From Candidatus Xenobia bacterium (lineage in GTDB: Bacteria; Vulcanimicrobiota; Xenobia; Xenobiales; QWHO01): 64,000 nt of DNA. Below the pieces are notes generated by a model, which saw only the letters and a program-made list of their open reading frames with translations, searched no databases and was not told the DNA's origin. Below, piece by piece: positions 25,090 through 61,283 of this stretch (positions are counted from its first letter, which is position 1; the number at the start of each line of letters is the position of its first letter). The stretch covers positions 128,001-192,000 of the forward strand of contig BTUM01000001.1 in assembly GCA_045863235.1 (NCBI GenBank), read 5' to 3'. Both the position numbers and the translations under genes were made by a program.

Positions 25090-25165
25090 GCCGAGGTAGC
25101 TCAGTTGGTAGAGCATGCGACTGAAAATCGCAGTGTCGCCAGTTCAATTCTGGCCCTCGGCACCA
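25090..25165 (+). tRNA. tRNA-Phe (GAA); probable prophage integration target
   Basis: GCCGAGG acceptor, TGCGA-CTGAAAA-TCGCA anticodon arm, GTTCAATTC and CCA end. Confidence 0.95.
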
Positions 25166-25170
25166 ACGAT

Positions 25171-25200
25171 AAGCCCGCTCCAGAGCGGGCTTTCGTATTT
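25171..25200 (+). terminator. Intrinsic terminator after tRNA-Phe
   Basis: AAGCCCGCTC-CA-GAGCGGGCTT followed by TCGTATTT. Confidence 0.75.
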
Positions 25201-25571: not shown

Positions 25572-25759
25572 TGACCCTGACCAACCTGCGGTGGGAAGCC
25601 ACCTGGAGCTCCTACGGAGATCTCCGGTATCTCGACGGAGCCACCCCAGACCAGCGGGAAGGCGTCCAGCAGGTAAGCGGTCTTGCCGGCCACCATGTCG
25701 ACGACCGGACTGACCTCGGGCTCCCGGTCGGGCCCGGAACCAAGGCACTGGAGGAGTGA
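25571..25759 (+). CDS. 62-aa hypothetical protein between hicA and hicB
   Basis: ATG overlaps the hicA stop (TGATG); its stop abuts the hicB start. Confidence 0.55.
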   Translation: MTLTNLRWEATWSSYGDLRYLDGATPDQREGVQQVSGLAGHHVDDRTDLGLPVGPGTKALEE

Positions 25760-25764
25760 GGAAA

Positions 25765-26205
25765 ATGAGGCTGCGATACAGAGCTCGGTTTTACCAGGAG
25801 GATGGCTGGTGGTTAGTCCAGATCCCCGACGTCGGGGGCGCCGGCCTAGCGACTCAGGGCGAGACGCTGGAGGAAGCCCGAGAGAACGCGGTGGACGCAG
25901 TGACCCAGGTCCTGCTGTCTCGCGTAGACGAGGGCGCCGAGCCGGATCCTCCCACTCGCGGCCGGCTCGAGGCCGGCTGGGAATGGGTTTATCCCGAGCT
26001 CCGAGTCGAGACCGCCATTGAGATCCGCCAGATGCGCAAGGCTGCAGGGCTGACCATGGCCTCGGCGGCGGGGCGGATCGGCGTGTCGCTCGGAACGTAC
26101 CAGAAGTGGGAGGACCCCGAGCGCTGCAACGCCACGCTCGAGACCCTGGACAAGCTTGCCAGGGCCTTCGGTCGCCACGCCGAGGTCATGTTCGTCAAGA
26201 CGTAG
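25765..26205 (+). CDS. hicB: HicB-family antitoxin with C-terminal XRE HTH
   Basis: EDGWWLVQIPDV...TQGETLEEARENAVDA, then IRQMRKAAGLT...IGVSLGTYQKWE. Confidence 0.9.
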   Translation: MRLRYRARFYQEDGWWLVQIPDVGGAGLATQGETLEEARENAVDAVTQVLLSRVDEGAEPDPPTRGRLEAGWEWVYPELRVETAIEIRQMRKAAGLTMASAAGRIGVSLGTYQKWEDPERCNATLETLDKLARAFGRHAEVMFVKT

Positions 26206-35177: not shown

Positions 35178-35948
35178 TCAGGAGGAGGCCTTCCATTTCA
35201 CCACGGGCTTCATGTAGGCGATTCGCTCGGGCAGCTCAGCGTAGCCGGTGGTCTCGAACCAGAGCCCGATGGCCTCGTTCACGGCAAGATCCCCTCCGCC
35301 GGGAACGGTCAACGCCGTCGCCAGGCTGAAAGCCCCAGAGAACGTCACACCCGTTGGCGGGGTCAGCCTGTCGGTTGTGCCCAGATTGGAATCCACCGCC
35401 GGGTCGAGGCCGAGGCGGTGCTCAGAAGTCGCGCCAGTTTTGCCGATCGGGATGTAGCCGAGCTGGTCGCCCCGAATCAGTCGGATGTTCCGACTCGCGT
35501 TCTGCAACGCCGTCCCGGCCTCGTTGCAGCACTCCATCAGGACCGGCGATTCCTCGTCCATCTGATTCTCGCCAGACACGGCTGTCGTGCCGTTGCACTG
35601 CTTCAGCTCGGTCGTCCACTCACCGCCGAGCTTGTAGCTCACCCGCACCCAATCGGTGCAGGGCCCGTCCGCCTGGATCTGCCAGGTCCCCTGGGCGGCC
35701 GGCTTGTTGAGGCCGTTGGCGACCCAGAACCGAAGATTGCTCAGGGTGGCGTCCCCAGTGTTCACGGCACCCAGCTTGTAGTGCCAGGGCCCCAGGTCGG
35801 GGGGCTCGTCGGGGGTCGGGATGTCAGGGATGAATGCGCCCTCAGTGTCCTCGTCGAGCGGCGAGCCCAGGTCGGGGTCTCCACCTTGCGGGCTCACATC
35901 GTCGTCGGCCCAATCGTCTGTCAGATAGGGAGTAATCGTCCCGGCCAT
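35178..35948 (-). CDS. Minor tail protein (hypothetical)
   Basis: 256-aa beta-rich ORF, TGATG-coupled to the upstream gene. Confidence 0.65.
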   Translation of the reverse strand: MAGTITPYLTDDWADDDVSPQGGDPDLGSPLDEDTEGAFIPDIPTPDEPPDLGPWHYKLGAVNTGDATLSNLRFWVANGLNKPAAQGTWQIQADGPCTDWVRVSYKLGGEWTTELKQCNGTTAVSGENQMDEESPVLMECCNEAGTALQNASRNIRLIRGDQLGYIPIGKTGATSEHRLGLDPAVDSNLGTTDRLTPPTGVTFSGAFSLATALTVPGGGDLAVNEAIGLWFETTGYAELPERIAYMKPVVKWKASS

Positions 35949-36379
35949 CAGCTTCCACTCCCTTCGATGCGGTCATGGACCTTGAGCCGGTTCACGACTG
36001 GCGAGAACCACCCGGACAAATAAGCCCCGGGCGTGCAGACCAGCGAGTCGCCCGGCAAGTAGCTCACCACCCAGGTGGTGCTGCCGTCATCAGGCGACCA
36101 GTGAAAAGGCTCGGCTTCGTCCCGCAGTGCCTTCAGAGCGTTGACCATGTCGAGCGAGGCCACCGGCAGCACCACGTCGACCCGCCCGTGACTGATACGC
36201 GTCCCGAAGGCAATCTCCACTTCCTCGCCCGGATAGTAGCGCGACCCGTCCCACACCGGTACCATCGGCTCTACCTGTGAGAGGAACGGCACCTGCACCT
36301 CGGGCTCGGGGAAGGGGGCGCTGACGCCCACCAGGTCGATTTGCCCGGACGCGTCCTGGCGGCGGAAGTAGTGGGCCAT
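35948..36379 (-). CDS. Post-tape-measure (distal-tail position) protein ending in GSGS
   Basis: 143 aa immediately after the tape measure gene; C-terminus HDRIEGSGS. Confidence 0.65.
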   Translation of the reverse strand: MAHYFRRQDASGQIDLVGVSAPFPEPEVQVPFLSQVEPMVPVWDGSRYYPGEEVEIAFGTRISHGRVDVVLPVASLDMVNALKALRDEAEPFHWSPDDGSTTWVVSYLPGDSLVCTPGAYLSGWFSPVVNRLKVHDRIEGSGS

Positions 36380-39300
36380 CAGGCCAGTCCCGGTATCGCG
36401 GGCGCGTCGCCCATCAGTCGGGCCTGCATCCCGGTGGAGTCGAGAAATCCCTGGATGGTGGCCTTCTCCCCGTCGGGGCCCAGGAGCTCACCCTCCACGA
36501 CCACTCCACCCGACAGAACCACCTCGAGCTTCGGCTTGCCTGCCTGGGCGGCGGCCTCAGCGGCAGCGCGCTGGTTGATTGGGGAGAAACTGGCACCCTT
36601 CGCGGCTGCCCCGACAGCAGCATTGGCCGGGGCGCTGAGGTCGGGAACGGGCAGCTTCGGGGCGGTCAAGTTACCGGCTGAGGTCAGGGCCCCGTCCAGG
36701 GCGCCCGATACCTGGGCGTCGGTCAAATCGCCGGATTTCCCTGTTGCAGCCCTTTTGCTTGACGCGAACCCGGTGAAGGAGTCGGAGGGGGCCCCGAAGT
36801 TTGCAAAGGCCCCGGCCACGTCACCAGGGTCGTACACGCCCCCAGTGGTCTGCTCACGGCTTCCGAGCAACGAGCGCCTCGCCGCCTTCTCGGCGTCCAC
36901 GGTGCTCTGCACGTCGGCCTTTTCCTGGTCGAGCAGCTTCTTCTTTTCGGCCGCCACGAAGCGGGCGATGGTCTCCTCGTCCACGCCGGCCTCGCGGGCC
37001 TTCTGGACGGTCTCGAGGATGGCCCGGACTTTGATCTCTCGCTCCTTGCCCTCGGCTTGGAGGGTGGCGTCCTCGAGTTGCTTCGTCAGGTCCTTGCGCT
37101 TGTCGAGCAGCTCCTTGTTCGCTTCGTCCTCGAGCTTCTTGCGCTCGCCGTGATACCAGGCTTCCACCAGCGCCTTGTCCTGGGCCACCTTCAGATACTC
37201 CGCCTTCTGGCGGTCCAGCTCGGCGATCTTCGCGGCAGTCTCACCCTGAGTGAGTCGGACGACCTCGATGGCCAGGTCGGACTCGAGCTTCTTAGCGGCG
37301 TCAGCGGCCTTCTTGCGCTCGTCGGCCTGCTTCTTGCGCTCGCCCTCGGCCTCTTTGAGCAGCTGGCCCCTCAGCCGAGCGATGTCCAGCTCGAGCTTGC
37401 GCTCCTCGTCTTTCTCGAGCACCAGCTGGGTCTGGCCAAACTTGCGAGACTGGAGCACCTGCTCGAGCAACGCCAGCTCCTGCTGGGTGCTCAGTTCGTG
37501 CAGTGCCCTTTTGCGGGCGACAAAGAACTCGAGGTCCTTTAGCGCGTCCTGAGTGCGCTGCCGTTGCCGTGCGGCCAGGGCGTCGGAGTCGTCCGCTTGC
37601 GCAACCTTGCCCGGAGCCTGGAGCGGCGTTGCATCGCTCTTCGGGCCTGCAATTTCGGGCGTCGGGGTCTTGGCGTTCTCTGTCTTGACCAATGCGTCCA
37701 GGAAGGTGTTGCCGGTGACGAGCCGGCCAACCCCCTTCAGGCCCTCGAAGAATCGGTTCCCGCCCTGCTCACCTCGAGCCAGGTCCTGCTGATTTCCCTG
37801 GCGCAGCAACCCGGCCACCTTCTGAGTGTCCTGCTGCAGTGTCCCCAGCTGGTCCTTTACCAGGCCCGGAAGCTGGTCCATCGCCACAGCGAGAGAATCA
37901 AGCAGGTCGGCCAGGGCGCCCTTGATGACGGCTACCAGGCCCACGAACAGGTCCTGGACTCCGCCGAAGAGCTGCGTAAAGGTCCCTTCCAGCTCGGTGG
38001 CCATGTGGCCCAGCGCCTGGCCAATCTGCCCGATAGCGGTCAGAGCCTTGTCCACCAGGTCGAGCAACCAGGTGCTCAGCATGAGGAACCCCTGGCCCAT
38101 TCCAGCGATGCTCGGGTCGAAATGCTTGCGCTTTAGCAACTCCCAGCGCTCGCCGAACTGCTCATCCCACGCGGCCGCGGCCTGCTTAGTGGCCCCGGCG
38201 GAATCGCTGAAGGTGGCTAAGAGGCCCTCGAACTCCCCCTTGCCCTGCCGAATGCCGCGGACGAAGTCGTTGGCAACTTTCTTGCTAAGCAGGTCCATCG
38301 CCGCGTCCATCTGTGCGGCGGAGCCCTTGCCCTCCCCAAAGGTCCGGAATAGCGCCGCCAGCACGCTGCGGGCCCCATTGACCGGGCGCCCGAACTGGTC
38401 GAGCTCCACGCCTAGGCGCTTCAGCGCTGAGGCCTGCTTGTCGGTTGGTTCGCGCAGGGCACCCATCATATTGGTGAGGCCCTTCAGGGCGGCCTCGGAA
38501 TTGGATACGTCGAACTGGGTCAGCAGGGCCAGCGACTCGTCGAAAGACAGCCCTGCCGCAGCAAATACCCCCTGGCCGCGCTGCAGAGTGGTGCCGAGCT
38601 GATCCACGCTGGCACCACTGGCCCGAGCTGCCACGGTCAGGCGGTCCAGGATGGGTTGGACCTGCTCCGTGCTCAGGCCCCAGGCATCGAGCAGGTCACG
38701 GGTCGTGTTGATGTTCTCTCGGACGTCCGTCTGATGGACCTTGGCAAAGTCCAGGAAGGCCTGCGTGACCGGGACCAGGTCGTTACCGATGTCACGGAAC
38801 TCGCGTCGCATCGCCTGCAACGCGCCACCCAGGGCCTCGATGCTGTTGGTGTTATTTCGGTGCAGGGAGATGAGAGCGCCCTCGAACCGCTTTGCCTCGC
38901 CCGCGCTGGCTCCGGTCTGTGACCGGAATCGAGCCATCGCGTCGTGGAGCTGGGTCCCGAACACCACGGCATCCGCGCCCAACTTGATCAGAGCGGCGCT
39001 CAGCGCGCCCAGGACGGCTGGCCCGGCGAACCGCAGAGCCATCGCAGACACGCGCTCGAGCTGACCTCCAAAAGAGTTCATCTGGGATCGAGCGGCACCC
39101 AGCTGAGAGCTCAGCTGACCCGCGCGCGCCTGAGTATCCTCGAGCGACTTGCGCATCTTGTCGAGCTTGGCGGCGGCCTTCTCCGCGCCAGTACCACCGG
39201 CGGCCACGGCCTTCTCAAGCTTGGCAATCTGCGCCGCCTTTCGATCTGCAACCGCGCGCGTCTTCTCGAGCTGCTGCTCAAGGCGCTTGACCTTCGCGGC

Positions 39301-39393
39301 GGCGCTCTCGGTGGACTTCTCCATGTCTCGGAGTTGGCTGACCGCCTTGCCCGTGAGAACATCGAAGACGGCTTCAAGCCGGAATACTGCCAT
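36379..39393 (-). CDS. Tail tape measure protein
   Basis: 1004-aa Ala/Leu-rich helical protein after the tail chaperones; LKRLGVELDQFG and AMDLL TMP-type segments. Confidence 0.9.
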   Translation of the reverse strand: MAVFRLEAVFDVLTGKAVSQLRDMEKSTESAAAKVKRLEQQLEKTRAVADRKAAQIAKLEKAVAAGGTGAEKAAAKLDKMRKSLEDTQARAGQLSSQLGAARSQMNSFGGQLERVSAMALRFAGPAVLGALSAALIKLGADAVVFGTQLHDAMARFRSQTGASAGEAKRFEGALISLHRNNTNSIEALGGALQAMRREFRDIGNDLVPVTQAFLDFAKVHQTDVRENINTTRDLLDAWGLSTEQVQPILDRLTVAARASGASVDQLGTTLQRGQGVFAAAGLSFDESLALLTQFDVSNSEAALKGLTNMMGALREPTDKQASALKRLGVELDQFGRPVNGARSVLAALFRTFGEGKGSAAQMDAAMDLLSKKVANDFVRGIRQGKGEFEGLLATFSDSAGATKQAAAAWDEQFGERWELLKRKHFDPSIAGMGQGFLMLSTWLLDLVDKALTAIGQIGQALGHMATELEGTFTQLFGGVQDLFVGLVAVIKGALADLLDSLAVAMDQLPGLVKDQLGTLQQDTQKVAGLLRQGNQQDLARGEQGGNRFFEGLKGVGRLVTGNTFLDALVKTENAKTPTPEIAGPKSDATPLQAPGKVAQADDSDALAARQRQRTQDALKDLEFFVARKRALHELSTQQELALLEQVLQSRKFGQTQLVLEKDEERKLELDIARLRGQLLKEAEGERKKQADERKKAADAAKKLESDLAIEVVRLTQGETAAKIAELDRQKAEYLKVAQDKALVEAWYHGERKKLEDEANKELLDKRKDLTKQLEDATLQAEGKEREIKVRAILETVQKAREAGVDEETIARFVAAEKKKLLDQEKADVQSTVDAEKAARRSLLGSREQTTGGVYDPGDVAGAFANFGAPSDSFTGFASSKRAATGKSGDLTDAQVSGALDGALTSAGNLTAPKLPVPDLSAPANAAVGAAAKGASFSPINQRAAAEAAAQAGKPKLEVVLSGGVVVEGELLGPDGEKATIQGFLDSTGMQARLMGDAPAIPGLA

Positions 39394-39783
39394 CGCCGTC
39401 TCCTTTCTCTCTCACGAACAGGCGCCGGTAGCTGGCCATAGCGGCGTGATACTCGGCATTGAGGTCGGCGTCGGGCTCGTCGAGCAAACCCCAGGTGCGC
39501 AGCCAATCACGCTCGCGCTGGATGGGCTTGCGCCAATGAGCGAAGTGTTCCATCCAGGCGCCGAACGCCAACAGACGCCTGGCCTGACGGGCCTCCACGA
39601 GCGCCTGCTGGCGTGCGACACGCAGGCGCTCAAGCAACTCGGCGTAGGGTGTCTCCCTCAGCCAGTCTTGTCGGGTGCCCCCGTAGCGAGACTGGAGAAG
39701 GTCGAGAGCCAGCCAGAGGCCATCTCGCCCAACCTCGCCAGGAGGCCCCGTCCGCTCGCCTCCCCCAGCAGGCCGAAAAAAAA
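39374..39783 (-). CDS. Tail assembly chaperone gpT-like segment (reached by -1 frameshift)
   Basis: Open -1 frame continuing from a T8 run (plus-strand A8, 39776-39783) inside the gpG-like gene to a stop at 39374. Confidence 0.75.
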
Positions 39784-40113
39784 GGCTTGCACATCCGGGT
39801 GCCTGGCCAGCGCACGCCCGCACTCCAACTGCACCGGAAGCGGGAAGAGCTCCGGGTCCTGGAACTCGGGGACGGGGACTTGAAGCACGTCAGCGAGCCA
39901 CTCCGCCAGTAGCTCACGGGTGGCAGGCAATCCCAGGAGGAGCGCGGCCGCGAAGGTCTCGACGGAAGAATCGACCCCCCGCAGCCGCGTGTTCAGCTCG
40001 CTCGAGCCCCGGCCGAGAGCCTCCTGGAGGATCTCAGCCAGGTCGTAGAGGTCGTCATAACCCAGGCGACGGAGCCGGTGGCTCCGCCCCTGGGCGTCAG
40101 TCACTGTCAGCAT
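39658..40113 (-). CDS. Tail assembly chaperone gpG-like
   Basis: 151 aa between the major tail protein and tape measure genes; contains slippery TTT TTT TTC (AFFF). Confidence 0.8.
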   Translation of the reverse strand: MLTVTDAQGRSHRLRRLGYDDLYDLAEILQEALGRGSSELNTRLRGVDSSVETFAAALLLGLPATRELLAEWLADVLQVPVPEFQDPELFPLPVQLECGRALARHPDVQAFFFGLLGEASGRGLLARLGEMASGWLSTFSSLATGAPDKTG

Positions 40114-40790
40114 CAGCTACCAGAGCCAGCGTTCTTGGGCAGGAAGAAGTGGATGGGCTGGTCGAGCGGAGCCGTCAGGGGCGAGCTACCTCGGAGCTCG
40201 AGCTGGAGCCCCACGGCGTTCCCGTCCTGCGTTTTGAACGAGGTCGAGTTGATGGCGATGGCGTTCTCGAGCACGACGATCACCGGCAGCACCACGTCGC
40301 CGTCATTGACCGAGGCGGCGATGGCGATGTTCGGGATGTAGTCGCCCTCTACCACGGCCAGGCGCGGGGTAATCTCGTCGTAGCTGCTCCACTCGTCCTT
40401 GTCGGACGAGCCCAATGCGATCTGGAGGGTATCGGGGTCGCGCACCTCGAGCACGGTCACCACGATGATCCCCTGAGCAGTGTCGCGCTTGTCGAGCCCC
40501 ATCACAGGGCCCCGCAAGCCGTCGATGGGCCCGATCTGACTGATGGGCGCCTCGAAGCGAGCCTCGGCTCCTTCTCTGGTCGCTCCAAACGCCCGCGGGG
40601 CCACCAGGTTGCCGGCGGCGCTGGTCCAGGTGTTGTCCGGATCGATGGCGTCGGCCCAGTCGTTGACGTCGAATCCGGCCAGGCTGCGCAGCTCGGCCAG
40701 GTTGATGTTGACGAACGCGGCGCCAGCGTGCAGCACCATGTTCTGAGGCGACACGGCCCGGAAGCCCGTGATGCCAGTGACGATACTCAT
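40113..40790 (-). CDS. Major tail (tube) protein ending in GSGS
   Basis: 225 aa; FGATREGAE-type motif, canonical position, GAGGAG RBS; C-terminus PKNAGSGS. Confidence 0.8.
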   Translation of the reverse strand: MSIVTGITGFRAVSPQNMVLHAGAAFVNINLAELRSLAGFDVNDWADAIDPDNTWTSAAGNLVAPRAFGATREGAEARFEAPISQIGPIDGLRGPVMGLDKRDTAQGIIVVTVLEVRDPDTLQIALGSSDKDEWSSYDEITPRLAVVEGDYIPNIAIAASVNDGDVVLPVIVVLENAIAINSTSFKTQDGNAVGLQLELRGSSPLTAPLDQPIHFFLPKNAGSGS

Positions 40791-40832
40791 TTCACTGATC
40801 TCCTCTCACTCCACTCCGGCCAGGCCGGTTTT

Positions 40833-41243
40833 CTATCGGTCCTGAACGGATTGCACCAGCGACCAGTCGTACGCCACGACCGAGAACTCCAGGGCAATCC
40901 GGTGAACATTTTGGGCGTCGGTGGCCACCTGGGCGGAGCGCGTGAACCAGTAGTTTGCAGGTGTCCCGGTGGCAAGCATCAGTCGCTGATAAGCCAGCAA
41001 TGCCTTCACACGCTCAGAAATCGCCTCGGCCCTGTCGGCGTTGGGCGAGTAATCCCAGATGTCCAGCTTATGAGAGCCTGAGAGCAACGGTGCTCCCCGC
41101 AATTCCAGCACATGGACGATGTAGGGCATCGGGGCGTTCCGTCGAGCCATCTTGCTGTACAGGTTGACCTGCTCCCCAAACAGCTCGATGAGTTGCTCGT
41201 CCTCTGTCAGCAGCGCATCGAAGGCATCGATGACGATCTTCAC
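40833..41243 (-). CDS. Tail terminator-like protein
   Basis: 136 aa with APMPYIV...KLDIWD pattern; lies before the major tail gene. Confidence 0.65.
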   Translation of the reverse strand: MKIVIDAFDALLTEDEQLIELFGEQVNLYSKMARRNAPMPYIVHVLELRGAPLLSGSHKLDIWDYSPNADRAEAISERVKALLAYQRLMLATGTPANYWFTRSAQVATDAQNVHRIALEFSVVAYDWSLVQSVQDR

Positions 41244-41635
41244 CTGAGCCTGTCGACCTGACTCCAGGGGGCATGGAGAATCCCCTCCACCTGGGTCTCG
41301 ACTTCAGCTAGCGCCTGTTCGAGGAAGGGCCGCTCGTCAGACACGGCCAGAGCAGCCGGGTGGTCTGTGCCCACAGTAACCTCGCCTTGCCCCGCCTTCA
41401 CCCGGAAGCTTTCCTGCAGCTTACCGGTGCGCCGAGCTGGCCACTCACCGGGAGCTGAAGCGGTGTAGGTCTGGTCTGTCCCGGGGATCTTGTAGGTGTG
41501 CCCCGAGCGTGGACCATCCAGTCCCTCTTTGACCGTGGATAGGATAGCTGAGGCCACCTCAGCCTCTTTAGCCCTCGCGTCCGCCTCGAGCGCCTTCTCC
41601 AGAGCCAGGAAGTGGTTCGTGATTTTAACTGCCAC
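41240..41635 (-). CDS. HK97 gp10-like tail completion protein
   Basis: SAPGEWPARRTGKLQES and ERPFLEQA motifs; GTG 41635. Confidence 0.75.
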   Translation of the reverse strand: MAVKITNHFLALEKALEADARAKEAEVASAILSTVKEGLDGPRSGHTYKIPGTDQTYTASAPGEWPARRTGKLQESFRVKAGQGEVTVGTDHPAALAVSDERPFLEQALAEVETQVEGILHAPWSQVDRLR

Positions 41636-41999
41636 TGCCGCCTCCGAGTTCGGGAATTGGAATGCCGTCATCCGTGATGTCGCGAGTCTGGATGATTGTC
41701 CAAGCCGCACGGGCCCCCTTTGGGGAGTAGGTGGCGGTCGTGGGCCGCAGGATTCTCTCGCCCCAGGCGAACAGGGTGCGGTCGTATCTGAACTCTCGCC
41801 GGCCCCTGAAGCGCAGCGTGTGCGTAGGCTCGGCGTCCTGCTTACCATAGGCGGCACGAGCGCTCACGTCCACCTCCAGGACCGACGCCCACCAGGTGCC
41901 CACCAGGTCCCAGTGCTCCTCTTCCCCCGTTGCGACGCGCACGCTGGTGAGGGCATACTCAGATACCCGCTGGTCCAGGGCCGCACAGGAGACACTCAC
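41625..41999 (-). CDS. Head closure (head-tail adaptor) protein ending in GSGS
   Basis: TGEEEHW...WWASV...THTLRFRG pattern; GTG overlaps the connector stop; C-terminus ELGGGSGS. Confidence 0.7.
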   Translation of the reverse strand: MSVSCAALDQRVSEYALTSVRVATGEEEHWDLVGTWWASVLEVDVSARAAYGKQDAEPTHTLRFRGRREFRYDRTLFAWGERILRPTTATYSPKGARAAWTIIQTRDITDDGIPIPELGGGSGS

Positions 42000-42331
42000 A
42001 GTCGGGGCTTCCAGCCTCGAGTCAGACCTGAGTAATCGCGCTGGGACCAATTCACAAATCCGAGCTGGTTCACTTGCTCGATCTGGAGACCGTCCGGCCG
42101 GTGCTCGTAGTCTCTGGATACCTGTTGCAGTAGCCAACGCTCGACCCAATTGGGGATCGGAAGGTCTTCCCCGTCGGCGTTCTGGAACGCGTTGCCCATG
42201 TAGGCGTCGGCGTCTTCTTTCGCGGCGTCCAAGAGTAGCTGGAGGAGCGCGTCCTCGTCGCTGGATTCTACCTTTGCGTAGAGCTTGACCGTCTCGAGAG
42301 TTACCGTGCTCCGGTCTACAACGGCTCCCAT
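41996..42331 (-). CDS. Head-tail connector (gp6/gp15-like)
   Basis: VTLETVKLYAKVESSDEDALLQLLLDAAKE...YEHR motif. Confidence 0.85.
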   Translation of the reverse strand: MGAVVDRSTVTLETVKLYAKVESSDEDALLQLLLDAAKEDADAYMGNAFQNADGEDLPIPNWVERWLLQQVSRDYEHRPDGLQIEQVNQLGFVNWSQRDYSGLTRGWKPRL

Positions 42332-43668
42332 CAGGCGCCACCGTGCATGCGAGTCAGATGCCCGCGCAGTGATGCGGCGCTCGGGAATTGCCTGTCACAC
42401 TGCCCACAGGAAAAGCCTTCCTTGACCTCGGCCGGAGCCACCACTTTCGCTTCGGTCGTTTCAAGAGGAGCGATCCTCGCCAGCCCGCGATTCTCAAACC
42501 ATCTCACGCGCTGAGGCAAGTCATAACCTGTGTAGATTCGTTTCCACCCACCGCGCGAGAGTACACAGTTTGGATAGAACTCGGCATTCTTTGGAATGCG
42601 ACCTTCCGGCGCAACAAACGTCTGGTTTGCGATCATTCGGACTGAGGCCGGATTCTGCGGTTTCTCGTGTTCAGGCACAGTCAAGACCTCCAGGATGGCG
42701 TTCACAGCCCGCACGGTAGCGTGTCTGTCGGTGTACTTGTAGACCCGGGCCACAGCCCGTTTCCTGGCTTCCTGCTGGGTTTCAAAGTCCTCGAGAGCCA
42801 GGGCGACTCCGTCTACCAAGTGGTCCGGGTTAGCAACCTGGACGCCCACCGTAGCGCATTCCCAGAAGCGCAAGCCGTGGTGAATGTTTCGTCGGTAGTG
42901 AGGGCTGTTCAGCACCACTACCGGTCTCCCGGCCGAGGCGAATTCGAACAATGTCGATGAATTGTCACAGATGTAGCAGTCGGCTCGTTCGAGCACCTCG
43001 TCAAAATCCGCCAGCACCTCGACTCCGGCGGCCTGATAATGCGGCCGCAACTGCTCAATGATTCGCGGGTGGCCATGGCCGATGAGTGTCCAACGGGGGT
43101 CTGTCGCCAGATCAGAGAGGGCGCCGCGAAAGTGCTCCCAGGCACTTCTGGTTTCCGGCACGATCCGGCAGTCCCAGTGAAAGGACATTGCAACCACGGG
43201 GCGCTGGGGGCGTTTCCAGGGAGGAGCCGGGTGCCAGCGGTCGAGCTTTGGGCAACCCACGACCGCCACCGGTATCCCCGGATGTGCCCGCCTGTTACGC
43301 TCGGCCGGGTGGTCCCCGGGCACGAGGAAGAGTCGGACCCCCAGACGCCCCTCGCCGCCGGCGTAGCTCGAGTGTGCACTCGAGTAGCTCTGGCCGGCAC
43401 CGTGCTCGGAGAAAATGGTTGGATGGTGGGCCTGCTGAGCCACCTTGAGGTCGCGAAAGCTGCTGACCAGGACTGAGCTTGCCGGCGTCAGCACTTTCCC
43501 GACGACGCTCGATCGCTCAAATGCTACGGACTCGATGCCCTTGCTTTTGGCGTACTCGACCAGGTGCCCTGGGACCAGGAAGACTCCCTTCCTTTCGACA
43601 GGGAAGGCATTCCAGATCGGCCTCAGGTGGTCAAGAAAATGCCGCTCGGAAGCCACGCAATCCAGCAT
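42331..43668 (-). CDS. CDP-glycerol glycerophosphotransferase (TagF)-like GT-B protein fused to a C-terminal C2H2 zinc-finger domain
   Basis: VGCPKLD, HGHPR and ADCYICDNSSTLFEFASAGRPVV motifs; ends CGQCDRQFPSAASLRGHLTRMH. Confidence 0.7.
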   Translation of the reverse strand: MLDCVASERHFLDHLRPIWNAFPVERKGVFLVPGHLVEYAKSKGIESVAFERSSVVGKVLTPASSVLVSSFRDLKVAQQAHHPTIFSEHGAGQSYSSAHSSYAGGEGRLGVRLFLVPGDHPAERNRRAHPGIPVAVVGCPKLDRWHPAPPWKRPQRPVVAMSFHWDCRIVPETRSAWEHFRGALSDLATDPRWTLIGHGHPRIIEQLRPHYQAAGVEVLADFDEVLERADCYICDNSSTLFEFASAGRPVVVLNSPHYRRNIHHGLRFWECATVGVQVANPDHLVDGVALALEDFETQQEARKRAVARVYKYTDRHATVRAVNAILEVLTVPEHEKPQNPASVRMIANQTFVAPEGRIPKNAEFYPNCVLSRGGWKRIYTGYDLPQRVRWFENRGLARIAPLETTEAKVVAPAEVKEGFSCGQCDRQFPSAASLRGHLTRMHGGA

Positions 43669-45194
43669 CAGTAGTTGTTTCCGGCTCGCTCCGCCCCGAT
43701 ATGAGTGACCAGTTCCTCGCCGTGCCCCCAGTAGGCCATCCGATTGGCTGGGTCGCGGTTCAGCACGTCGGTGTAGCCTCGCTCGCTGGATTTCACATCA
43801 GGCCAGGGCGTCTCACAAAGGGAGCGCCTGAAGAGACTCGGGTTGCACGTCCAGTAGAGACGATGTTCCAGCCAGCGCGCACCGTCCACCTCGCACTTGG
43901 TGTAGGCCTCAGGATGCTCGGCGATAATGCTGCCGGCAGCCAGCTCGCGAGGATAGTAGGGGTGTCGCAGGAGCGCGAGCTGGCTCAGATGTGGCTGGTC
44001 CTGCAGAATGTCGATCATCCGGTCGAGATCGATGGGCACGTCAAACGTGAAGTCGTCCTCGGTCTGGAACACGTAACCCGAATTGCAGCGCCGTCGCAGG
44101 TAGCTCCACATCGCTCGCATCGAACCCGTGTAGCCGAGCCGCTCGGCCGGGCCGACCACGTAGAACCCGAATCTCCCGAATTGCTCCATGAGCCACTGCT
44201 TGTAGGCTGCGTCTCCCGAATCGTCGTAGAACACGCGGCGCACGATGGGGCCCCGCACTTGCTCGACCAGGCTGGGGACGGCCCGTGCGATGTATTCGCG
44301 TCGCCTATCCGTGTGCACCACTACTGTCACGCCACGGTTGACTGCCTTCCAATCGTCGACCAGTTCCCGCAGGGTGGGCCACTTGCCCGTCCACTCGGAG
44401 CCGCCGAGCTGGGCTTCGGCAGCTGTGCTCTCGCGCTCGAGGTTGGCGATGTCTCTGGCCAGGTCTTCCTTGGGCGGCCAGGTGTCCTCGCGCTCCGTCT
44501 GACCCATGTCCCGGCGCAGGGCCACCATGTAGCGCCGGCCCAAGATCGAGTTGCGGAGGAAATCGACCTGGTAGCGCCCGTTCCGCTTTCCGCGCTCCGG
44601 TGTCAGCGGGTGCCACAGGTGGAAGACATCGCCATCGATCCGCTCGTGTCCGTGTAGGCCGCAGACCGCAGACTGGAACGCCATGTCCTCCCAGCCCCAT
44701 CCACGAAAACGCTCGTCGAAGCCGCCCAAGTCATCCCAGACCGGCCGCGGCACGACGAAGCAGCAGCTCCAACTGAGCGGGTTCGTTTTCTCCACCAGAT
44801 GGTCAAGGTCAGCGCCGTCCAGGCCCTGGGCGAGCAAGCCGGCCTGGTCGCGCACCAGGCGATCGGTCGAGGCTCGGTCCAACCCCCGCCAGCGTCGGAA
44901 GGCCCAGGTGACCCGCCCGGTCGTCCGAGCCCGCTTGAGCGCTGCCTCCAGCTGACCGACCGGAATGAAGATGTCGCTGTCGATGATGACTGCGAAGTGC
45001 CAGCGCCCGTCCCTGTCCGCCGCCCGAGCCGCCCGATTGATCGCAGCTGAGCGGTTGAAGGGCCCGCGGTCATGGTGTCCCTCGTAGACCCTGAGCTTCG
45101 GGTGAAGGAGCGCCCAGCGCTTCTTGAGGCGTTCCCAAATCAAGTCGCGCTCAGGGATGCCCGCGCGCCGCGGGCAGAGGATAACAATCCGCAT
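43668..45194 (-). CDS. Bifunctional glycosyltransferase (two GT-A domains)
   Basis: Domain 1: FNRSAAIN, IIDSD (DxD), GGFDERFRGWGWED, FHLWH. Domain 2: YDDSGD, FQTEDDF, WTCNPSL, THIG. Confidence 0.85.
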   Translation of the reverse strand: MRIVILCPRRAGIPERDLIWERLKKRWALLHPKLRVYEGHHDRGPFNRSAAINRAARAADRDGRWHFAVIIDSDIFIPVGQLEAALKRARTTGRVTWAFRRWRGLDRASTDRLVRDQAGLLAQGLDGADLDHLVEKTNPLSWSCCFVVPRPVWDDLGGFDERFRGWGWEDMAFQSAVCGLHGHERIDGDVFHLWHPLTPERGKRNGRYQVDFLRNSILGRRYMVALRRDMGQTEREDTWPPKEDLARDIANLERESTAAEAQLGGSEWTGKWPTLRELVDDWKAVNRGVTVVVHTDRRREYIARAVPSLVEQVRGPIVRRVFYDDSGDAAYKQWLMEQFGRFGFYVVGPAERLGYTGSMRAMWSYLRRRCNSGYVFQTEDDFTFDVPIDLDRMIDILQDQPHLSQLALLRHPYYPRELAAGSIIAEHPEAYTKCEVDGARWLEHRLYWTCNPSLFRRSLCETPWPDVKSSERGYTDVLNRDPANRMAYWGHGEELVTHIGAERAGNNY

Positions 45195-45940
45195 TAGACC
45201 TCCCGGAAGGCTCGCAGGATCTCGAGCAGGGCCTCCTGCTTGGCCCGCACTTGGGCCTGGTCGGCCAAGCGCCAGCCCGGACGGATAGTCTCCCCGAACG
45301 AACTGGCGTAGTCTCGAAACTTGAACCCGTCTCCGAGCACGCCGGGGTGAGGGTCCCACCAGTTCTCGATTCCCAGTGAATCTGCCAGGATGATCCCGTG
45401 CAGACTCGAGGACACGATTCGCCGACAGCGGGCCGCGGCGGTCACCACCTGGTCGACGCCAGCGAGGACGTCGATCTCAAGCACGGTCTCGCGTCGGCCG
45501 GGGTCGACCTCGATCGAGCGCACTTTGTAGTCCCCAGGGTTTCCGCGATGGTCGACGTAGTGACGGATGAATCCGACGTCGACATCCGGCCTGGGCCGCT
45601 CGTGGAGCAACAGGCCGGCCAGGAGCCCAGGGTCGGCCAGCACAGGTGGAGGATTCTCCGGGCTCAGGCGCACCCGCTCGAGCGTAAGCCTCCCACGCAG
45701 GGCGAGCACACGGGAGCAGGTCAGGTCCCGGCGGGATTCATCGAACATCAGCCCGCTGCCCAGCACGGTGCCGGCCCACCCGTCAGGGACCGCCTCCAGC
45801 ACCGACCCCACAGCCACCAGGTGCGCGTCTGGCACCTCGGCCCATTCTGGCTCGATCCCCGCAATGCGAGAAAGGAGCACCCTGGTAAGGGCGTCGCCAA
45901 AGTTGGCTCCTCCAGCGTACTGGTCCCAGAAAGCTCTCAT
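45194..45940 (-). CDS. Polysaccharide pyruvyl transferase (ExoV-like)
   Basis: NFGDAL, AVGSVL, LALRGRLT, ADPGLL, SSSLHGIILADSLGI and FKFRDY motifs. Confidence 0.85.
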   Translation of the reverse strand: MRAFWDQYAGGANFGDALTRVLLSRIAGIEPEWAEVPDAHLVAVGSVLEAVPDGWAGTVLGSGLMFDESRRDLTCSRVLALRGRLTLERVRLSPENPPPVLADPGLLAGLLLHERPRPDVDVGFIRHYVDHRGNPGDYKVRSIEVDPGRRETVLEIDVLAGVDQVVTAAARCRRIVSSSLHGIILADSLGIENWWDPHPGVLGDGFKFRDYASSFGETIRPGWRLADQAQVRAKQEALLEILRAFREV

Positions 45941-45960
45941 GGTCTCAACATTCCCATCTC

Positions 45961-45990
45961 AAAATGGGGCCCCCGGTTGGAGGCCCCACG
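45961..45990 (-). terminator. Hairpin/terminator after the major capsid gene
   Basis: Minus strand reads TGGGGCCTCC-AACC-GGGGGCCCCA-TTTT. Confidence 0.7.
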
Positions 45991-46005
45991 TTCAAAGGGG
46001 ACCGA

Positions 46006-47256
46006 TTATGAGCCGGAGCCCGTGTAGCTGCCGGTGATGATGAGTTCGGGAATCTGGTGGGCGATGTATACCCCCTCGTCACCGAACAACAGCAACTTGC
46101 CAGACAGCGCAAAATCGCTGTGCTGGTTGAAGATCTGCACGCTCACCTCTTCCAGGTCATAGAAGGTTGAGGACTGGTAGAGGTCGCCAGTCACGAACTG
46201 GCCCTGGTCGATTGCGCTGGTGGGAAACACAGGAACTTGCCACATGACCTTCTGGCCATTGACCTGGACCTGAGCCCAGATGTAGCGATCCTGGCTGTCC
46301 TTCTGGAGCTCCATCTCCTCCCAGTCCTCGTGATTCACGATGTAGACGGTGGGGAGGGTGGGCAGTTCCACCAGATGAAGCATCGTCTGGGCGCGGCGCA
46401 GCGCGTCGATCTTGGTGTCGCCAGCCTGGTGGCGGTTGTAGGTCTGTCGCCCGCTGACCTGGGTGAAACCCTTCAGGCTCGCAGAAGACCCGGCGATCAG
46501 GAGCGTGTCCTCCTTGTGGTAGATGCCGTTGACCATGCGGTTCTCGGTGAAGTTCTCCACGGTGGGCATGTCGCGGGCCTGCTCCTTGGTGAGGACCAGG
46601 CCGTGGCTGACCTGAGTCGAGGCCACCGAAGACTTGTCGAAGCTGATCTCGGAGAGTGCGGCCTCGGCTCCCTCAGCACGCTCGGCTGCCGCGTTGGTGT
46701 AGCCCGTCTCTACCACGAACTCAAGCTGAGCTTTCGTCGTCCGCACGACATTCAGGACGTCGCGCAAGTGCATTTGCCGCAAACGAGGGGGGGCGTAGAT
46801 GCGCTGGTCGAGCATGGTCGAAAGGACGTCGCGGGCGTCGCCTGGGTCGAGCGCCTTCTTTTCGGGCCAGATCCGGCCAAGCTTGACCGGCTCCATCGAA
46901 ACAGCTGACTTGTTCTCCAGGAACTTGCGGTACGTCTCCGACTCGGTGAGTCGCTTTCCGATTGACTTCGTCTGGCCGTCTCCGTGGACCACGGTGCGGT
47001 TGAGCTTGGCCTCGATGTCATCCAGGCGGCTCTTCTGCTCGACAGCAGTTTCATGGGCCCTTTTGATCTCGCTCTGGATATCCTCGGCGGTCTTGTTGTA
47101 GCGTTCCTCGAGCGCGGCGATCGACTTGCTGGTCGAGCTGGTCGTGCCCCCCAGCTTCTTGATCTCCTCGTTCTGCTTTTTCAGCTCCTCCTTGAGGGCT
47201 GTCTGCACGGACTTGAACTCGCTGCCCAGCTGGGCCAGTGCGTCGTTCGTCTTCAC
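46006..47256 (-). CDS. Major capsid protein (HK97 fold, N-terminal delta-like coiled coil) ending in GSGS
   Basis: Follows portal and protease; AAERAEGAE and VNHEDWEEMELQKDSQDRYIW motifs; AAAGGAG RBS; C-terminus TGSYTGSGS. Confidence 0.9.
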   Translation of the reverse strand: MKTNDALAQLGSEFKSVQTALKEELKKQNEEIKKLGGTTSSTSKSIAALEERYNKTAEDIQSEIKRAHETAVEQKSRLDDIEAKLNRTVVHGDGQTKSIGKRLTESETYRKFLENKSAVSMEPVKLGRIWPEKKALDPGDARDVLSTMLDQRIYAPPRLRQMHLRDVLNVVRTTKAQLEFVVETGYTNAAAERAEGAEAALSEISFDKSSVASTQVSHGLVLTKEQARDMPTVENFTENRMVNGIYHKEDTLLIAGSSASLKGFTQVSGRQTYNRHQAGDTKIDALRRAQTMLHLVELPTLPTVYIVNHEDWEEMELQKDSQDRYIWAQVQVNGQKVMWQVPVFPTSAIDQGQFVTGDLYQSSTFYDLEEVSVQIFNQHSDFALSGKLLLFGDEGVYIAHQIPELIITGSYTGSGS

Positions 47257-56483: not shown

Positions 56484-57268
56484 TGGTTCTCACTTCCGGC
56501 GAGAGCGTCCCGGAGGTTGGCAGCGGCGCGGAGGGTGCGCGAGTCGTGGGTGCGGGCCAACTCGGCTGCCACGGCGTACACATCGGGTGGCTGGGGAGTC
56601 CGGAGTTTTAGCAGTGCCTCGCGCGCCGCTTCTTGCACTTCGGGCCCATAGGTCAGGAGGGTGCCGCCGACTGGTCCGCCACACTGGGGACAGGCATCGG
56701 ACTCCATCGTCTGCGGCATTGACTCAGAATTGACCGGAGTAGTCAATTCTTTTGACTCATGGGCTTTCTCACGCTCGGCTCGTGTCTGCTTGGCTTGGTG
56801 GCGCCCAGCACAGCCACGCGCCGCGTACTTGCGACCTGGTGGCACCAGCCCCCCGCACTCGCAAGGGCAGAGTGGGTCGACGGGTCGAGCAGCCTCAAGC
56901 TTGGCCAGCTCTTGGCACAGGTGGCAATTATCGCTGTCCTGCGCGGCGGGCCAGGTGCATCCCGGCGTGGCGCACTGGATCAAGGTAACGTCCATGGTGG
57001 CTGACATGAGTTCCTCCTTCGGATCTGAATTTGGCAGGGGCAGAATGGGCTTGGTCTCGACGATCCAGCGTCGGCGGCATTTGGGGTTTTGGCACCGGGC
57101 GTGCTGCTCGACCCTGGTGCCCAGCGCACTGGTGATGGTGCAGGGCGGGTCGAGCGGGGCGTCCTTCCCGCACTCGCACGGTACCTTGGATCGGTCGTCC
57201 CAGCGGGTCGGGTCCGACTTGAAGAAGCGGAATCCATGGAGCTCGTGCGAGACGGGAAGCGCGCTCAT
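56480..57268 (-). CDS. Cys-rich hypothetical phage protein
   Basis: CECG, CPCECGG and CPQCG motifs; ATGA-coupled at 57268. Confidence 0.6.
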   Translation of the reverse strand: MSALPVSHELHGFRFFKSDPTRWDDRSKVPCECGKDAPLDPPCTITSALGTRVEQHARCQNPKCRRRWIVETKPILPLPNSDPKEELMSATMDVTLIQCATPGCTWPAAQDSDNCHLCQELAKLEAARPVDPLCPCECGGLVPPGRKYAARGCAGRHQAKQTRAEREKAHESKELTTPVNSESMPQTMESDACPQCGGPVGGTLLTYGPEVQEAAREALLKLRTPQPPDVYAVAAELARTHDSRTLRAAANLRDALAGSENH

Positions 57269-57924
57269 TTTAGCGAGCGCAGGTGGTCGGCGACGACGTC
57301 GGCGAGGCGAAGGTCTTGTTTGGTGAGCACGGAGCGTTGTCCAGCATCCCACCCGACACGCATCGCGTCCGCCACCTCACGCGTGCGCTTGTCGCGTAGA
57401 TCCTGGAGCTCTCGCTCGGTAGCGAGCCGAGCAGCCTCGACGGCGTCTCGCCGCTTCTGAGCCTGTCCCAGGTCGTGCTCCTGACCTGCGATCACCGCGT
57501 CGGCTCGACGGATGACCTGCAGCATCTTGACCAAGTCCTCACGGGCGTAGCGCTCGCGCTCAGTCAGGGGTTGCCAGCGGTCGAGGTTGACCTGCACGCG
57601 CTTGAGTTCATGCTCGAGGTGCGTCCGGTTCCACTCGTCGGGCGTGCTGGGCTTCCAGTCCGTCGCGCGAGCCTCTGTCTCGAGATCCGACAGCTTGTCC
57701 GTAAGGAGCTCGAGCAGGGCGCTGACGTCCCGCTCGTTGTCAGGCGAGTAGAGGCGCCGAGCCAGCTTGTCACGGATGCGGAGCAGCTCGGAGTGCATCT
57801 CGAGCGGGCGGTGCAGGTAGTTGACGGCCGCTTCGGCCAGGGCGAACTCGGGTGAGTCCGGGGCGGCGTTCTCGGAGAGGGCGGTAGCCAGGCGGAGGAG
57901 TCGGGTGCGCGGGTGGCTGCTCAT
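57265..57924 (-). CDS. Hypothetical coiled-coil phage protein
   Basis: GGGAGG RBS; ATGA-coupled. Confidence 0.65.
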   Translation of the reverse strand: MSSHPRTRLLRLATALSENAAPDSPEFALAEAAVNYLHRPLEMHSELLRIRDKLARRLYSPDNERDVSALLELLTDKLSDLETEARATDWKPSTPDEWNRTHLEHELKRVQVNLDRWQPLTERERYAREDLVKMLQVIRRADAVIAGQEHDLGQAQKRRDAVEAARLATERELQDLRDKRTREVADAMRVGWDAGQRSVLTKQDLRLADVVADHLRSLK

Positions 57925-58232
57925 GATGGCACCTCCCCGAGGAGTAGGCCGATCTCGTAGAGTCGGGTATTGATCCAGCGGCACCTCTGGACGCGTTGCA
58001 TGATGTCCGCGTCGAGATACCAGCCCTGGATCTGCGACAGCAGCTCGCACTGCTCTCGGAGGATGGTGCGGCGTTCGGCCCGCAGCATCTGGTCGCGCAC
58101 GATGCTGTTGAACTGGGCGTAAGCCCGCTCACCCTCGGCGGTGTGAACCGTGCGCGGCACCAGGCGTACGCGGGCGGGGATGCGTGGGCCGCGCATCCGG
58201 TTGGCGATAGAGTCGAGCCAGTCATCGAGCAT
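57921..58232 (-). CDS. Hypothetical phage protein
   Basis: 103 aa; GGAGGAGG RBS; overlaps neighbours. Confidence 0.6.
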   Translation of the reverse strand: MLDDWLDSIANRMRGPRIPARVRLVPRTVHTAEGERAYAQFNSIVRDQMLRAERRTILREQCELLSQIQGWYLDADIMQRVQRCRWINTRLYEIGLLLGEVPS

Positions 58233-58620
58233 GGTCTTGGTCCTCCTCCAGGTTGAACTCAGGAAAGGTGGGGGTCATGGCGAGTTCGTTGGCGTAGCGC
58301 TCGGCCGCCTCGCGACGCTCGCGGTAAATGCCCTCGTCGGAGCGGAACTCGCGGACGTCCGCGTCGTAGTCCTCGAGCACGCCCCAGGTATCTTCCTCCC
58401 CCAGAATGCCCATGGCGTCGTGATAGACATAGCCACGCTGCTCCAGCGAGCGCAGGGCCGCGCGCTCGTCGGGCTTGAGGTCTTCGACCGTGTTGCAGGC
58501 GCAGTTCTCACAGTGCGGCTTGCCGAGGAGGCCGTCGTCGCCACGGTCGTGCAAGTCGAAGAGCACCCGCTTCTCGGTGCCTGAGAGGGCATCCCAGTCG
58601 ATGCGGGCGATCTCATGCAT
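58222..58620 (-). CDS. Hypothetical phage protein
   Basis: 132 aa; overlaps the beta-clamp stop. Confidence 0.6.
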   Translation of the reverse strand: MHEIARIDWDALSGTEKRVLFDLHDRGDDGLLGKPHCENCACNTVEDLKPDERAALRSLEQRGYVYHDAMGILGEEDTWGVLEDYDADVREFRSDEGIYRERREAAERYANELAMTPTFPEFNLEEDQDHAR

Positions 58621-59695
58621 GGGCGGCCTGCCTGAGCTGGACCGGCATTATGACGTAGCTCCACTCGCCGACCCGGATGTGGGCCGCCCGATCGTGCGAC
58701 TGAAAGCCCCAGTCGATGGTCGGGCTGTCCAGGACCACCAGGCCCTCGAGCAGGTACTTGCCGTTGAATGCGATGGTAAGCTCCACCTCGGATGCGGGCA
58801 GGGCCATTTCCTCGCTGCCTGACCCGACGGTTGCTGTCTCCGCCGTGATGCGGAGTGCACCGGGCGAGAATTCCAGCTTCACCAGGTGCGGCGACTGCGA
58901 ATCCTGGGCGAAGAGCAGCACGCGTCGCAGGGCTTCGATCAGTTCCGTCCGGTTGATCGTGGCCAACATCGGGGTCTTAAACTTGGAGACCTGGGCCCAG
59001 TTGGGGAAGTTGCCTTCCATGATGCGGCCGCCGATTCGCGTGGACCCGGACTCTGCCAGCCAGCTGCCGCGCGCGATGGACAGGGAGATGTCGCCCTGAA
59101 GCCCGAGCACGACATCGATCCGGGCCAGCACCGAGGGGCTCAAGCCGTACTTGCCGGGAATCGTCTGGAAGGCCAGACGGCGCCCGTCGCAGCCCACCAG
59201 CGTGAGCCCGTCCGGGCCGAAGCTGAAGAGCATCCCGGTCATCACCGCGCGAGTCTCTTCGGCCTGCGCGCGCGCAAAGTCGACCTTGCGGATAACTTGC
59301 TGGAGCTGACCGTCCGGGAAATCGTAGCGCTCGCCCTCGTCGAAGGTGCTGGCCGGGAACTCCTCGGCAGGCAACGTCGGGAAGGTTGTACGGGACTTGC
59401 CGGCGCTGACGTGGAGCTGATCGCCCACCAGGTGCAGGGTGACGTTGCTCTTAGCCAGGTTCACCCAGTCGGCCAGTGTCTTGTAGTCGACCGTGCAGGC
59501 CTTGTCCTGGTGGTCGAGGTGCATCTCGACGTCGGTCAGGGTGTGCTCGATCCGGAGATCCATGTCGGTGCAGGTCAGGGCGTTACCCTCGATCAGCACG
59601 TGCTTCAGGATCGGAAGAGGCGACCGGGTCTTAGTTGCAGGTGCAACAGCCTTCAAGCCGGCTTGAAGCACCTTCAACGGGATGGTCATATGCAT
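58613..59695 (-). CDS. dnaN: DNA polymerase III beta sliding clamp (phage-borne)
   Basis: LPILKHVLI, TDMD, LPAEEFP, GCDGRRLA, EGNFPNW, IAFNGKYL and YVIMPV motifs. Confidence 0.9.
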   Translation of the reverse strand: MHMTIPLKVLQAGLKAVAPATKTRSPLPILKHVLIEGNALTCTDMDLRIEHTLTDVEMHLDHQDKACTVDYKTLADWVNLAKSNVTLHLVGDQLHVSAGKSRTTFPTLPAEEFPASTFDEGERYDFPDGQLQQVIRKVDFARAQAEETRAVMTGMLFSFGPDGLTLVGCDGRRLAFQTIPGKYGLSPSVLARIDVVLGLQGDISLSIARGSWLAESGSTRIGGRIMEGNFPNWAQVSKFKTPMLATINRTELIEALRRVLLFAQDSQSPHLVKLEFSPGALRITAETATVGSGSEEMALPASEVELTIAFNGKYLLEGLVVLDSPTIDWGFQSHDRAAHIRVGEWSYVIMPVQLRQAAHA

Positions 59696-59721
59696 GGCAG
59701 GGGTTCCTTTCTTGGGGTTGC

Positions 59722-61071: not shown

Positions 61072-61283
61072 GACTGCGGCTCCTTTGGCTCGGGCCCGCA
61101 GGAGCAAGGCCCTTTCTCTTTGAGGAAGATGTTGGCTGCGCGTACCGGGCAGCAGTGGTCGACGAGCTCGCCCTGGATCTGCCAGCGCCCAGCTTTGGTC
61201 TTGCGCACCATGAAATCGGTGCGACCCTGGAGGACGTAGGCGATCGGAATAAGGGCGGGCCAGCGGTGGGCGGTGGTGCTCAT
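61068..61283 (-). CDS. Small hypothetical phage protein
   Basis: 71 aa; ATGA overlaps at both ends. Confidence 0.5.
   Translation of the reverse strand: MSTTAHRWPALIPIAYVLQGRTDFMVRKTKAGRWQIQGELVDHCCPVRAANIFLKEKGPCSCGPEPKEPQS

Follow-up and report, generated by a model that had tools for sequence, protein, structure and literature searches.

Glycosylation of the phage particle is documented for a few mycobacteriophages. As far as the accessible text of PMC12363180 goes, Che8, Corndog and Myrna are described as glycosylating their capsid and tail tube, and Che8 gp110 and Corndog gp38 are called essential for capsid glycosylation. Virion O-glycosylation in these phages (Che8 gp108-110, Corndog gp36-38, and Myrna) is treated in PMC12363180, PMC13445384 and PMC11256854, each available in part. 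The Myrna capsid ends in RKA, and Myrna gp98, a minor capsid protein according to the available part of PMC7150772, ends in LAGGS, as does Cali gp94. The capsid and the tube end in -KTGS and -SDGS in Che8 and in -LVGS and -KGDS in Corndog. According to Freeman et al. 2023, the sugar reportedly sits on the terminal Ser of mycobacteriophage virion proteins. Literature searches on phage glycosylation, covering listings and selected passages, turned up no paper on a terminal Gly-Ser (GS) tag; Freeman et al. (Cell Host Microbe 31:1216) may already name a Gly-Ser motif or enzymes other than gp110. Here we describe a siphovirus-type prophage in a window of 64,000 nucleotides from a Candidatus Xenobia bacterium (positions 128001-192000 of contig BTUM01000001.1, called C1 here). 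Four of its virion proteins end in Gly-Ser-Gly-Ser (GSGS), and three genes are inserted between the genes of its capsid and head-tail adaptor. They encode a pyruvyltransferase-like protein, a double glycosyltransferase (GT) and a PF04464-like enzyme of the GT-B fold (called GT-B here). We consider it likely that the C-terminal Ser is the acceptor for phage-encoded O-glycosylation of the virion, and that an enzyme other than gp110 initiates it.

The prophage is similar to the mycobacteriophage systems in several respects. Terminal Ser, mostly as Gly-Ser, is found on the capsid and tail tube (or minor capsid) proteins of Che8, Corndog and Myrna, as it is here; the match to glycosylated mycobacteriophage proteins drawn in a preliminary description of this DNA holds for the Che8 and Corndog capsids and for Myrna gp98. 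The transferases of Che8 and Corndog are likewise small and soluble, and the N-terminal domain of the double GT is a homolog of Che8 gp109 and Corndog gp37. In Corndog, the cassette also lies within the head operon. A gp110/gp38 homolog is present in Che8, Corndog, Myrna (gp238) and Cali (gp235) but was not found in the genome that carries the prophage. The prophage has a TagF-fold GT-B and a pyruvyltransferase, unlike the Che8 system, and its tag is doubled and extends to the head-closure and Dit-like proteins, which have non-GS ends in Che8 and Corndog. Its host is probably a member of the Vulcanimicrobiota, whereas the hosts of Che8-type phages are Actinomycetota. A host protein encoded in the flank of the prophage has its closest named relatives in Ca. 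Eremiobacterota (78%) and Vulcanimicrobiota (63%). Most likely, the prophage system works like that of Che8 without the enzyme reported to be essential there. By analogy with the mycobacterial phages, its particle is probably sugar-coated, by different enzymes.

The four GSGS ends are those of the major capsid, head-closure and tail tube proteins and of a post-tape-measure protein that is probably Dit-like (distal tail). When re-read from the sequence, the ends, their codons and stop positions were all exactly as first described (Table 1). They account for 4 of the 39 prophage open reading frames (ORFs) in the window; the remaining 35 all have non-GS ends. Genome-wide, 12 of 31,864 six-frame ORFs of at least 80 amino acids end in GSGS, including these four. 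At this rate, the binomial probability of 4 in 39 is 1.6e-9, and calculated from amino-acid composition it is 3e-14. The four GSGS ends are thus a genuine feature that chance would hardly produce. Two tail-tube homologs (59% and 55% identity) end in SASGS and SGSGS, and GS ends were found in 25 of 150 capsid homologs (12 of 13 among the nearest). Single-protein scans of IMG/VR for relatives of the capsid and the tube found none.

The tags of the closure and Dit-like proteins might be a by-product of the ribosome-binding site and start codon of the next gene. The overlap, raised as a caveat from the start, does exist: GGAGG and the GTG start of the following gene lie within the closure tail, and GGGAG lies within the Dit tail, ahead of a TGATG overlap of the Dit stop with the next ATG. 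The tail-tube stop likewise overlaps the ATG of the next gene; the capsid end overlaps nothing. A syntenic relative of the prophage (L368) has a terminase of 28% identity and a portal, protease, capsid, adaptor, closure, gp10, terminator and tube of 31-43% identity. Its proteins end in VEGSGS, PEGSGS (closure, a 35% ortholog) and ADGSGS, and the positional Dit equivalent ends in GPEGS. The L368 closure end is encoded by GGG AGC GGC TCA TGA with an ATGA overlap, as against the GTG overlap in the window, and the Dit equivalent ends in GGC TCC TAG. The tags are thus kept with other codons and another overlap, and gene overlap does not account for those of the minor proteins. In one closure family, GS ends were seen in 22 of 23 loci and Ser ends in all 23 (not deduplicated). 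With the same residues found across different overlaps, we regard the by-product explanation as very improbable. The terminal codons of 65 capsids were TCC in 23, AGC in 20, TCG in 17, other Ser codons in four and a non-Ser codon in one; by class, 43 were TCN and 21 AGY. This mixture of Ser codons points to selection on the residue and, together with the differing L368 codons, upholds the earlier view that selection acts on the peptide.

Loci bearing transferases were fetched by three queries: the double GT alignment (with search patterns from the N domain), the GT-B domain and the C domain, which belongs to family phrog_3047. Capsids were found by profiles built from tail-trimmed, GS-ending seeds and counted after coarse deduplication; phrog_779 was counted as a capsid by position only. 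Distinct capsids ended in Ser in 47/47 cases for the gp109-like domain, 34/34 for GT-B and 29/32 for phrog_3047. Among the 100 distinct capsids pooled, 97 ended in Ser, 69 in GS and six in GSGS. After Gly, Ala was the next commonest penultimate residue in the Ser-ending capsids. Among tail tubes, a Ser end was seen in 82 of 86 from transferase loci (46 GS; three others ended in Thr) and in 3 of 11 from transferase-free loci. These counts agree with the expectation that the tag travels with the glycosyltransferase genes. They do not agree with GSGS as the acceptor sequon, which was rejected because GSGS ends only 6 of the 100 capsids. The general signal is a terminal Ser, usually Gly-Ser, and GSGS is a lineage-local doubled form.

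The tag is not confined to capsids and tubes. We collected 186 GS-ending ORFs, and 121 of them were scanned against the PHROG families: 67 fell into virion families, 11 into families of unknown function and two into non-structural families, and 41 had no match. The 67 comprise 24 capsids, 21 tubes, eight terminators, five closures, five adaptors, two portals and two others, and they cover several capsid and tail-tube families. The proposed extension to minor virion proteins is thereby seen in many phages, on terminators, closures, adaptors and portals. One family of unknown function, phrog_1084 (L007:12878-13240 and relatives), has a GS end in 8 of 12 loci and is probably an exposed virion protein.

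We also selected loci by their capsid. In a first control, 78 capsids in 80 loci included six with a Ser end and two with a GS end (1/20 Ser after deduplication); 0 of 50 records matched the double GT (11 of the 50 at least 90% complete), and 0 of 49 matched the gp110 alignment. An enlarged control added closer relatives and kept 114 of 145 loci; the other 31 had short flanks or partial capsids and were excluded. The loci kept yielded 56 distinct capsids, to which that of the window was added. Some of the transferase profiles used here were built from neighbours in this control, and one gene (in L506) was called a transferase by inspection only. Ser ends were found in 11 of 14 capsids with an adjacent transferase, including GT4 and GT2 enzymes, versus 5 of 42 without; two of the three exceptions with a transferase end in Thr. 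In a second capsid family, for which members with transferases served as seeds (37 distinct capsids; 58 of 78 loci), 27 of 28 capsids with a transferase and 3 of 9 without one ended in Ser. The co-occurrence suggested earlier for GS and GSGS ends is thus seen for terminal Ser, while GSGS itself is rare. A close pair shows the same association. L575 has transferases, a capsid ending in -QPAAS and a tube ending in -AVAS; L570, 75% identical, has -APAAP and -PPTP and no transferase within its 14.9-kb fragment.

Several observations weigh against terminal Ser as the acceptor. Independent-pair (tree-aware) tests had only four and two supported pairs, putting significance out of reach, so kinship inflates the Ser/transferase counts. 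The three queries left 18/80, 31/76 and 26/71 loci without a detected capsid, and with GS-ending seeds, untagged families may be missed. GX15bay has a phrog_3047 homolog, a probable capsid ending in -NLAP and a probable tube ending in -RYGT. Syleon has a transferase and a capsid ending in -DTSA, although its tube ends in -AAGS. The capsids of three phrog_3047 loci end in TPGT, CSSC and VITL, and those of three other loci with a transferase (L552, L253 and L296) in QTP, PQT and LGT. Conversely, Ser-ending capsids with no transferase in sight were found in L512, L252, L303, L317 and L540 and in L609, L630 and L634, mostly incomplete records. Finally, the tagged phages do not share any one enzyme family: the tag is present in gp110-like, phrog_3047, GT-B and GT4 loci alike.

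Some of these points suit an explanation in which the GS tails are plain flexible ends that carry no modification and were passed down within lineages, and the transferases merely sit in the late operon and act elsewhere, on host surface glycans or DNA. The tree-aware tests, the Ser-ending capsids without a nearby transferase and the GS ends of the nearest capsid homologs, whose gene context is unreadable, would all fit. The tag, however, recurs in non-homologous protein families, both within one genome and across families, and L570 has it on neither capsid nor tube. The transferases are also soluble and homologous to the Che8/Corndog cassette. We therefore judge this explanation quite improbable. 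Because the pair tests are uninformative, the case for terminal Ser as acceptor rests on its recurrence across non-homologous proteins and not on a kinship-corrected p value.

The lack of a common enzyme family suggests that more than one enzyme can initiate or, with lower probability, that a host enzyme does so. A host enzyme could read and prime the terminal Ser and leave extension to the phage enzymes, or the end could be selected for stability against C-terminal proteolysis. GSGS ends only 8 of 31,860 other host six-frame ORFs, however, and it is the phages' own gp110 and gp38 that are called essential in the available part of PMC12363180. A stability signal would need no adjoining transferase genes. 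We give this pair of alternatives a slim chance.

A number of the loci deserve separate mention. GX15bay (L001; 13126-18249 and 33831-35048) has several transferase genes; its probable tube is annotated as an epimerase, and -RYGT is a possible Thr variant. Sugar-metabolism-like clusters lie behind the QTP and PQT capsids (L552:11337-16612 and L253:11312-14310), possibly with another acceptor rule. L246 (5091-5462) and L540 (11188-12030) have near-identical capsids, both ending in DSGS. Behind the capsid, L246 has just a 123-aa GT4 fragment, and no transferase was detected in L540. These two loci may be a decaying cassette with the tag left behind. L614, L615, L619, L622 and L633 have full-length GT4 enzymes, often two, directly after the capsid gene; their capsids end in AAS, HQS or TYS and their tubes in YTGS or WGYS, which ties a further family to the Ser end. 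An unnamed family without a Pfam match (L091:922-1617 and 47 other loci) is frequent in the cassettes and absent from the window. Comparison by hhalign relates it to the phrog_3047 domain (probability 94.5%).

The double GT was modelled as two GT-A domains (pLDDT 94), and both halves have structural GT-A matches. Its N domain is homologous over approximately 190 aa to Che8 gp109 (27% identity, E 1e-12) and Corndog gp37 (26%, E 1e-10). The C domain is shared with cluster C1 mycobacteriophages and Gordonia phages. The idea that it is a diverged gp110 was unsupported in a sequence-profile comparison (hhalign probability against the gp110 profile 5.9%). A tblastn search of the genome, which is 97.6% complete, returned no gp110 homolog. 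The best whole-genome hit of the gp110 profile with hmmsearch --max was E 0.26; the same profile finds Myrna gp238 at 5e-49. A gp110 homolog was present in 5 of 50 transferase-bearing virus records, four of these being members of the query alignment, and in 1 of 42 GT-B records. Seven of the nine transferase-bearing records that are at least 90% complete are without gp110, and all seven have GS-ending capsids. Tagged phages without gp110 imply a gp110-independent route. In 40 related bacterial genomes, no homologs of the double GT were found beyond weak GT2 matches.

The GT-B model (pLDDT 95) has tied structural matches: a UDP-GlcNAc 2-epimerase (4zht) and TagF (3l7i) at Z 21.1, Cps3D at 20.7 and TarL (8va1) at 19.6. 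It superposes on TagF and the epimerases with an rmsd of 3.5 over approximately 300 residues, and Foldseek ranks the epimerases first. GT-B has its fold in common with the polyol-phosphate polymerases TagF/TarL and with UDP-GlcNAc 2-epimerases, matches PF04464 and has invariant His-Gly and His-Pro motifs. Unlike theirs, its gene lies in a virion operon and carries a C2H2-finger fusion, and identity is 13-14%; its profile matched no sequence in the PDB. H89 and H200 are invariant in 38 homologs and may correspond to the catalytic histidines of TagF. The L368 ortholog is 36% identical. A TagD/TarI-like cytidylyltransferase gene, which would supply a CDP-polyol, was found in 16 of 114 GT-B loci versus 1 of 113 others, a comparison biased by a two-sequence profile taken from GT-B loci and not deduplicated; the same profile had no match in the host/prophage genome. 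The small fused domain (42331-42672) ends in a C2H2 finger by sub-threshold Pfam matches. Similar finger fusions occur in an L354 enzyme and an L532 GT4, and stand-alone copies follow the capsid gene in L246, L540 and L503. The finger domain may tether enzymes to the procapsid.

In this lineage, GT-B is the leading candidate for the enzyme that reads the tag, and we tentatively favour it as the initiating enzyme. L368 has only two GT-B paralogs at the cassette position, and neither the double GT alignment nor that of gp110 finds a match in its record (86% complete). In loci where GT-B is alone among four profiles, 13/13 distinct capsids end in Ser, and all six GSGS-ending capsids belong to such loci. 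Phage Rctr41k has a GT-B (gp32) and GS on its capsid, tube and post-tape-measure protein. Against a GT-B reader, G187 and G177 have another transferase, a GT2+GT4 fusion, and C-domain loci are mostly without GT-B and nonetheless keep the tag. The phrog_3047 domain is a possible, somewhat less likely initiator, the gp109-like domain an unlikely one, and a host enzyme a very unlikely one. We also considered GT-B as the only transferase in GT-B phages. This fails in G187 and G177, whose fusion lies in the replication arm, and holds for the L368 module and Rctr41k by Pfam (27 of 54 annotated Rctr41k features scanned).

From the tags, the enzyme folds and their co-occurrence, we infer the following chemistry and order of steps. 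The acceptor would be a free C-terminal Ser, usually after Gly, on a short flexible tail. Modification of the virion proteins would be phage-encoded and cytoplasmic, with the three inserted genes co-expressed with the structural genes. One enzyme would load the Ser hydroxyl with the initial sugar or polyol-phosphate, the remaining enzymes would extend the chain, and the pyruvyltransferase would add negative charge. The outcome would be a coat over the head, neck, tail tube and tail tip. A protein's C-terminal Ser or Thr is a known acceptor in pilin O-glycosylation by TfpO/PilO and TfpM, as described in the accessible part of PMC9829042, and in this the proposed tag is similar. TfpO and TfpM, however, are oligosaccharyltransferases that transfer lipid-linked glycans en bloc, whereas the folds of the prophage enzymes, GT-A and GT-B, are those usual in enzymes that act on nucleotide sugars.

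A bolder extension, which we think rather unlikely, is that tailed phages in general use terminal Ser as a two-residue address for the coating of their particles, and that three or more unrelated families have converged on reading it (gp110/GT25-like, phrog_3047 GT-A, TagF-fold GT-B and perhaps GT4). Here, GT-B would put a polyol-phosphate or an acidic sugar directly on the protein and cover the entire virion with an anionic coat resembling teichoic acid or a capsule. If true, the modification would be of a kind new for proteins, and the tag would be cytoplasmic and portable.

The coordinates of the features are collected in Table 1. For the post-tape-measure protein, the Atlas look-alikes are phage tail proteins, but their family names are below threshold. 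The ORF of the tail assembly chaperone (39374-40113) contains a T-run (GCC TTT TTT TTC) around position 39780 and is overlapped by a downstream ORF, as is typical of programmed frameshifting. Elsewhere in the prophage, 57265-63294 holds genes for a beta clamp of DNA polymerase III and for an N6/N4 and a C5 DNA methyltransferase, and a HicB-like antitoxin with a helix-turn-helix (HTH) domain lies at the left end (25756-26205). A second element of approximately 8 kb lies between the two downstream tRNA-Phe repeat copies (C1:207015-215283); its terminal 357-aa ORF resembles a second integrase, judged by position and size.

Table 1. Features of the prophage in the window, with the codons and stops of the GSGS tags.
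Feature	Position	Strand	Evidence and remarks
Attachment-site repeat in tRNA-Phe, prophage left end	25117..25175	+	further copies C1:207015-207070 and C1:215225-215283, outside the window
Post-tape-measure protein, probably Dit-like, ends IEGSGS	35948..36379	-	post-tape-measure position, Atlas neighbours; tag 35948-35962, GGG AGT GGA AGC TGA, stop 35948
Tail tube protein, ends NAGSGS	40113..40790	-	phrog_885 E 1e-23; tag 40113-40127, GGC TCT GGT AGC TGA, stop 40113
Head-closure protein, ends GGGSGS	41625..42002	-	sub-threshold PF05521 (Phage_HCP) E 0.0019 and position; tag 41625-41639, GGC AGT GGC AGT TAA, stop 41625
Head-tail adaptor	41996-42331		
GT-B enzyme, PF04464-like, ~330 aa, fused to small C2H2-finger domain	42331..43668	-	PF04464 E 9e-9
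Double GT-A glycosyltransferase, 508 aa	43668..45194	-	phrog_1721 and phrog_3047
Polysaccharide pyruvyltransferase-like, probable glycan decoration	45194..45940	-	PF04230 E 2e-6; homologs in 8 related loci
Major capsid protein, HK97 fold, ends YTGSGS	46006..47256	-	PF05065 E 1e-22, phrog_10; tag codons and stop 46006-46020, GGC TCC GGC TCA TAA, stop 46006

The named enzymes and a tag of two to four residues make the acceptor role of terminal Ser testable in E. coli, and the tag is a possible minimal cytoplasmic one for glycoengineering. If terminal Ser is the acceptor, virion glycosylation would be common among environmental tailed phages and predictable from the last residue of the capsid and the tube. 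The coating would reach neck and tail-tip proteins and be independent of the single initiating enzyme family described. This would bear on the resistance of virions to antibodies, grazers or sticking.

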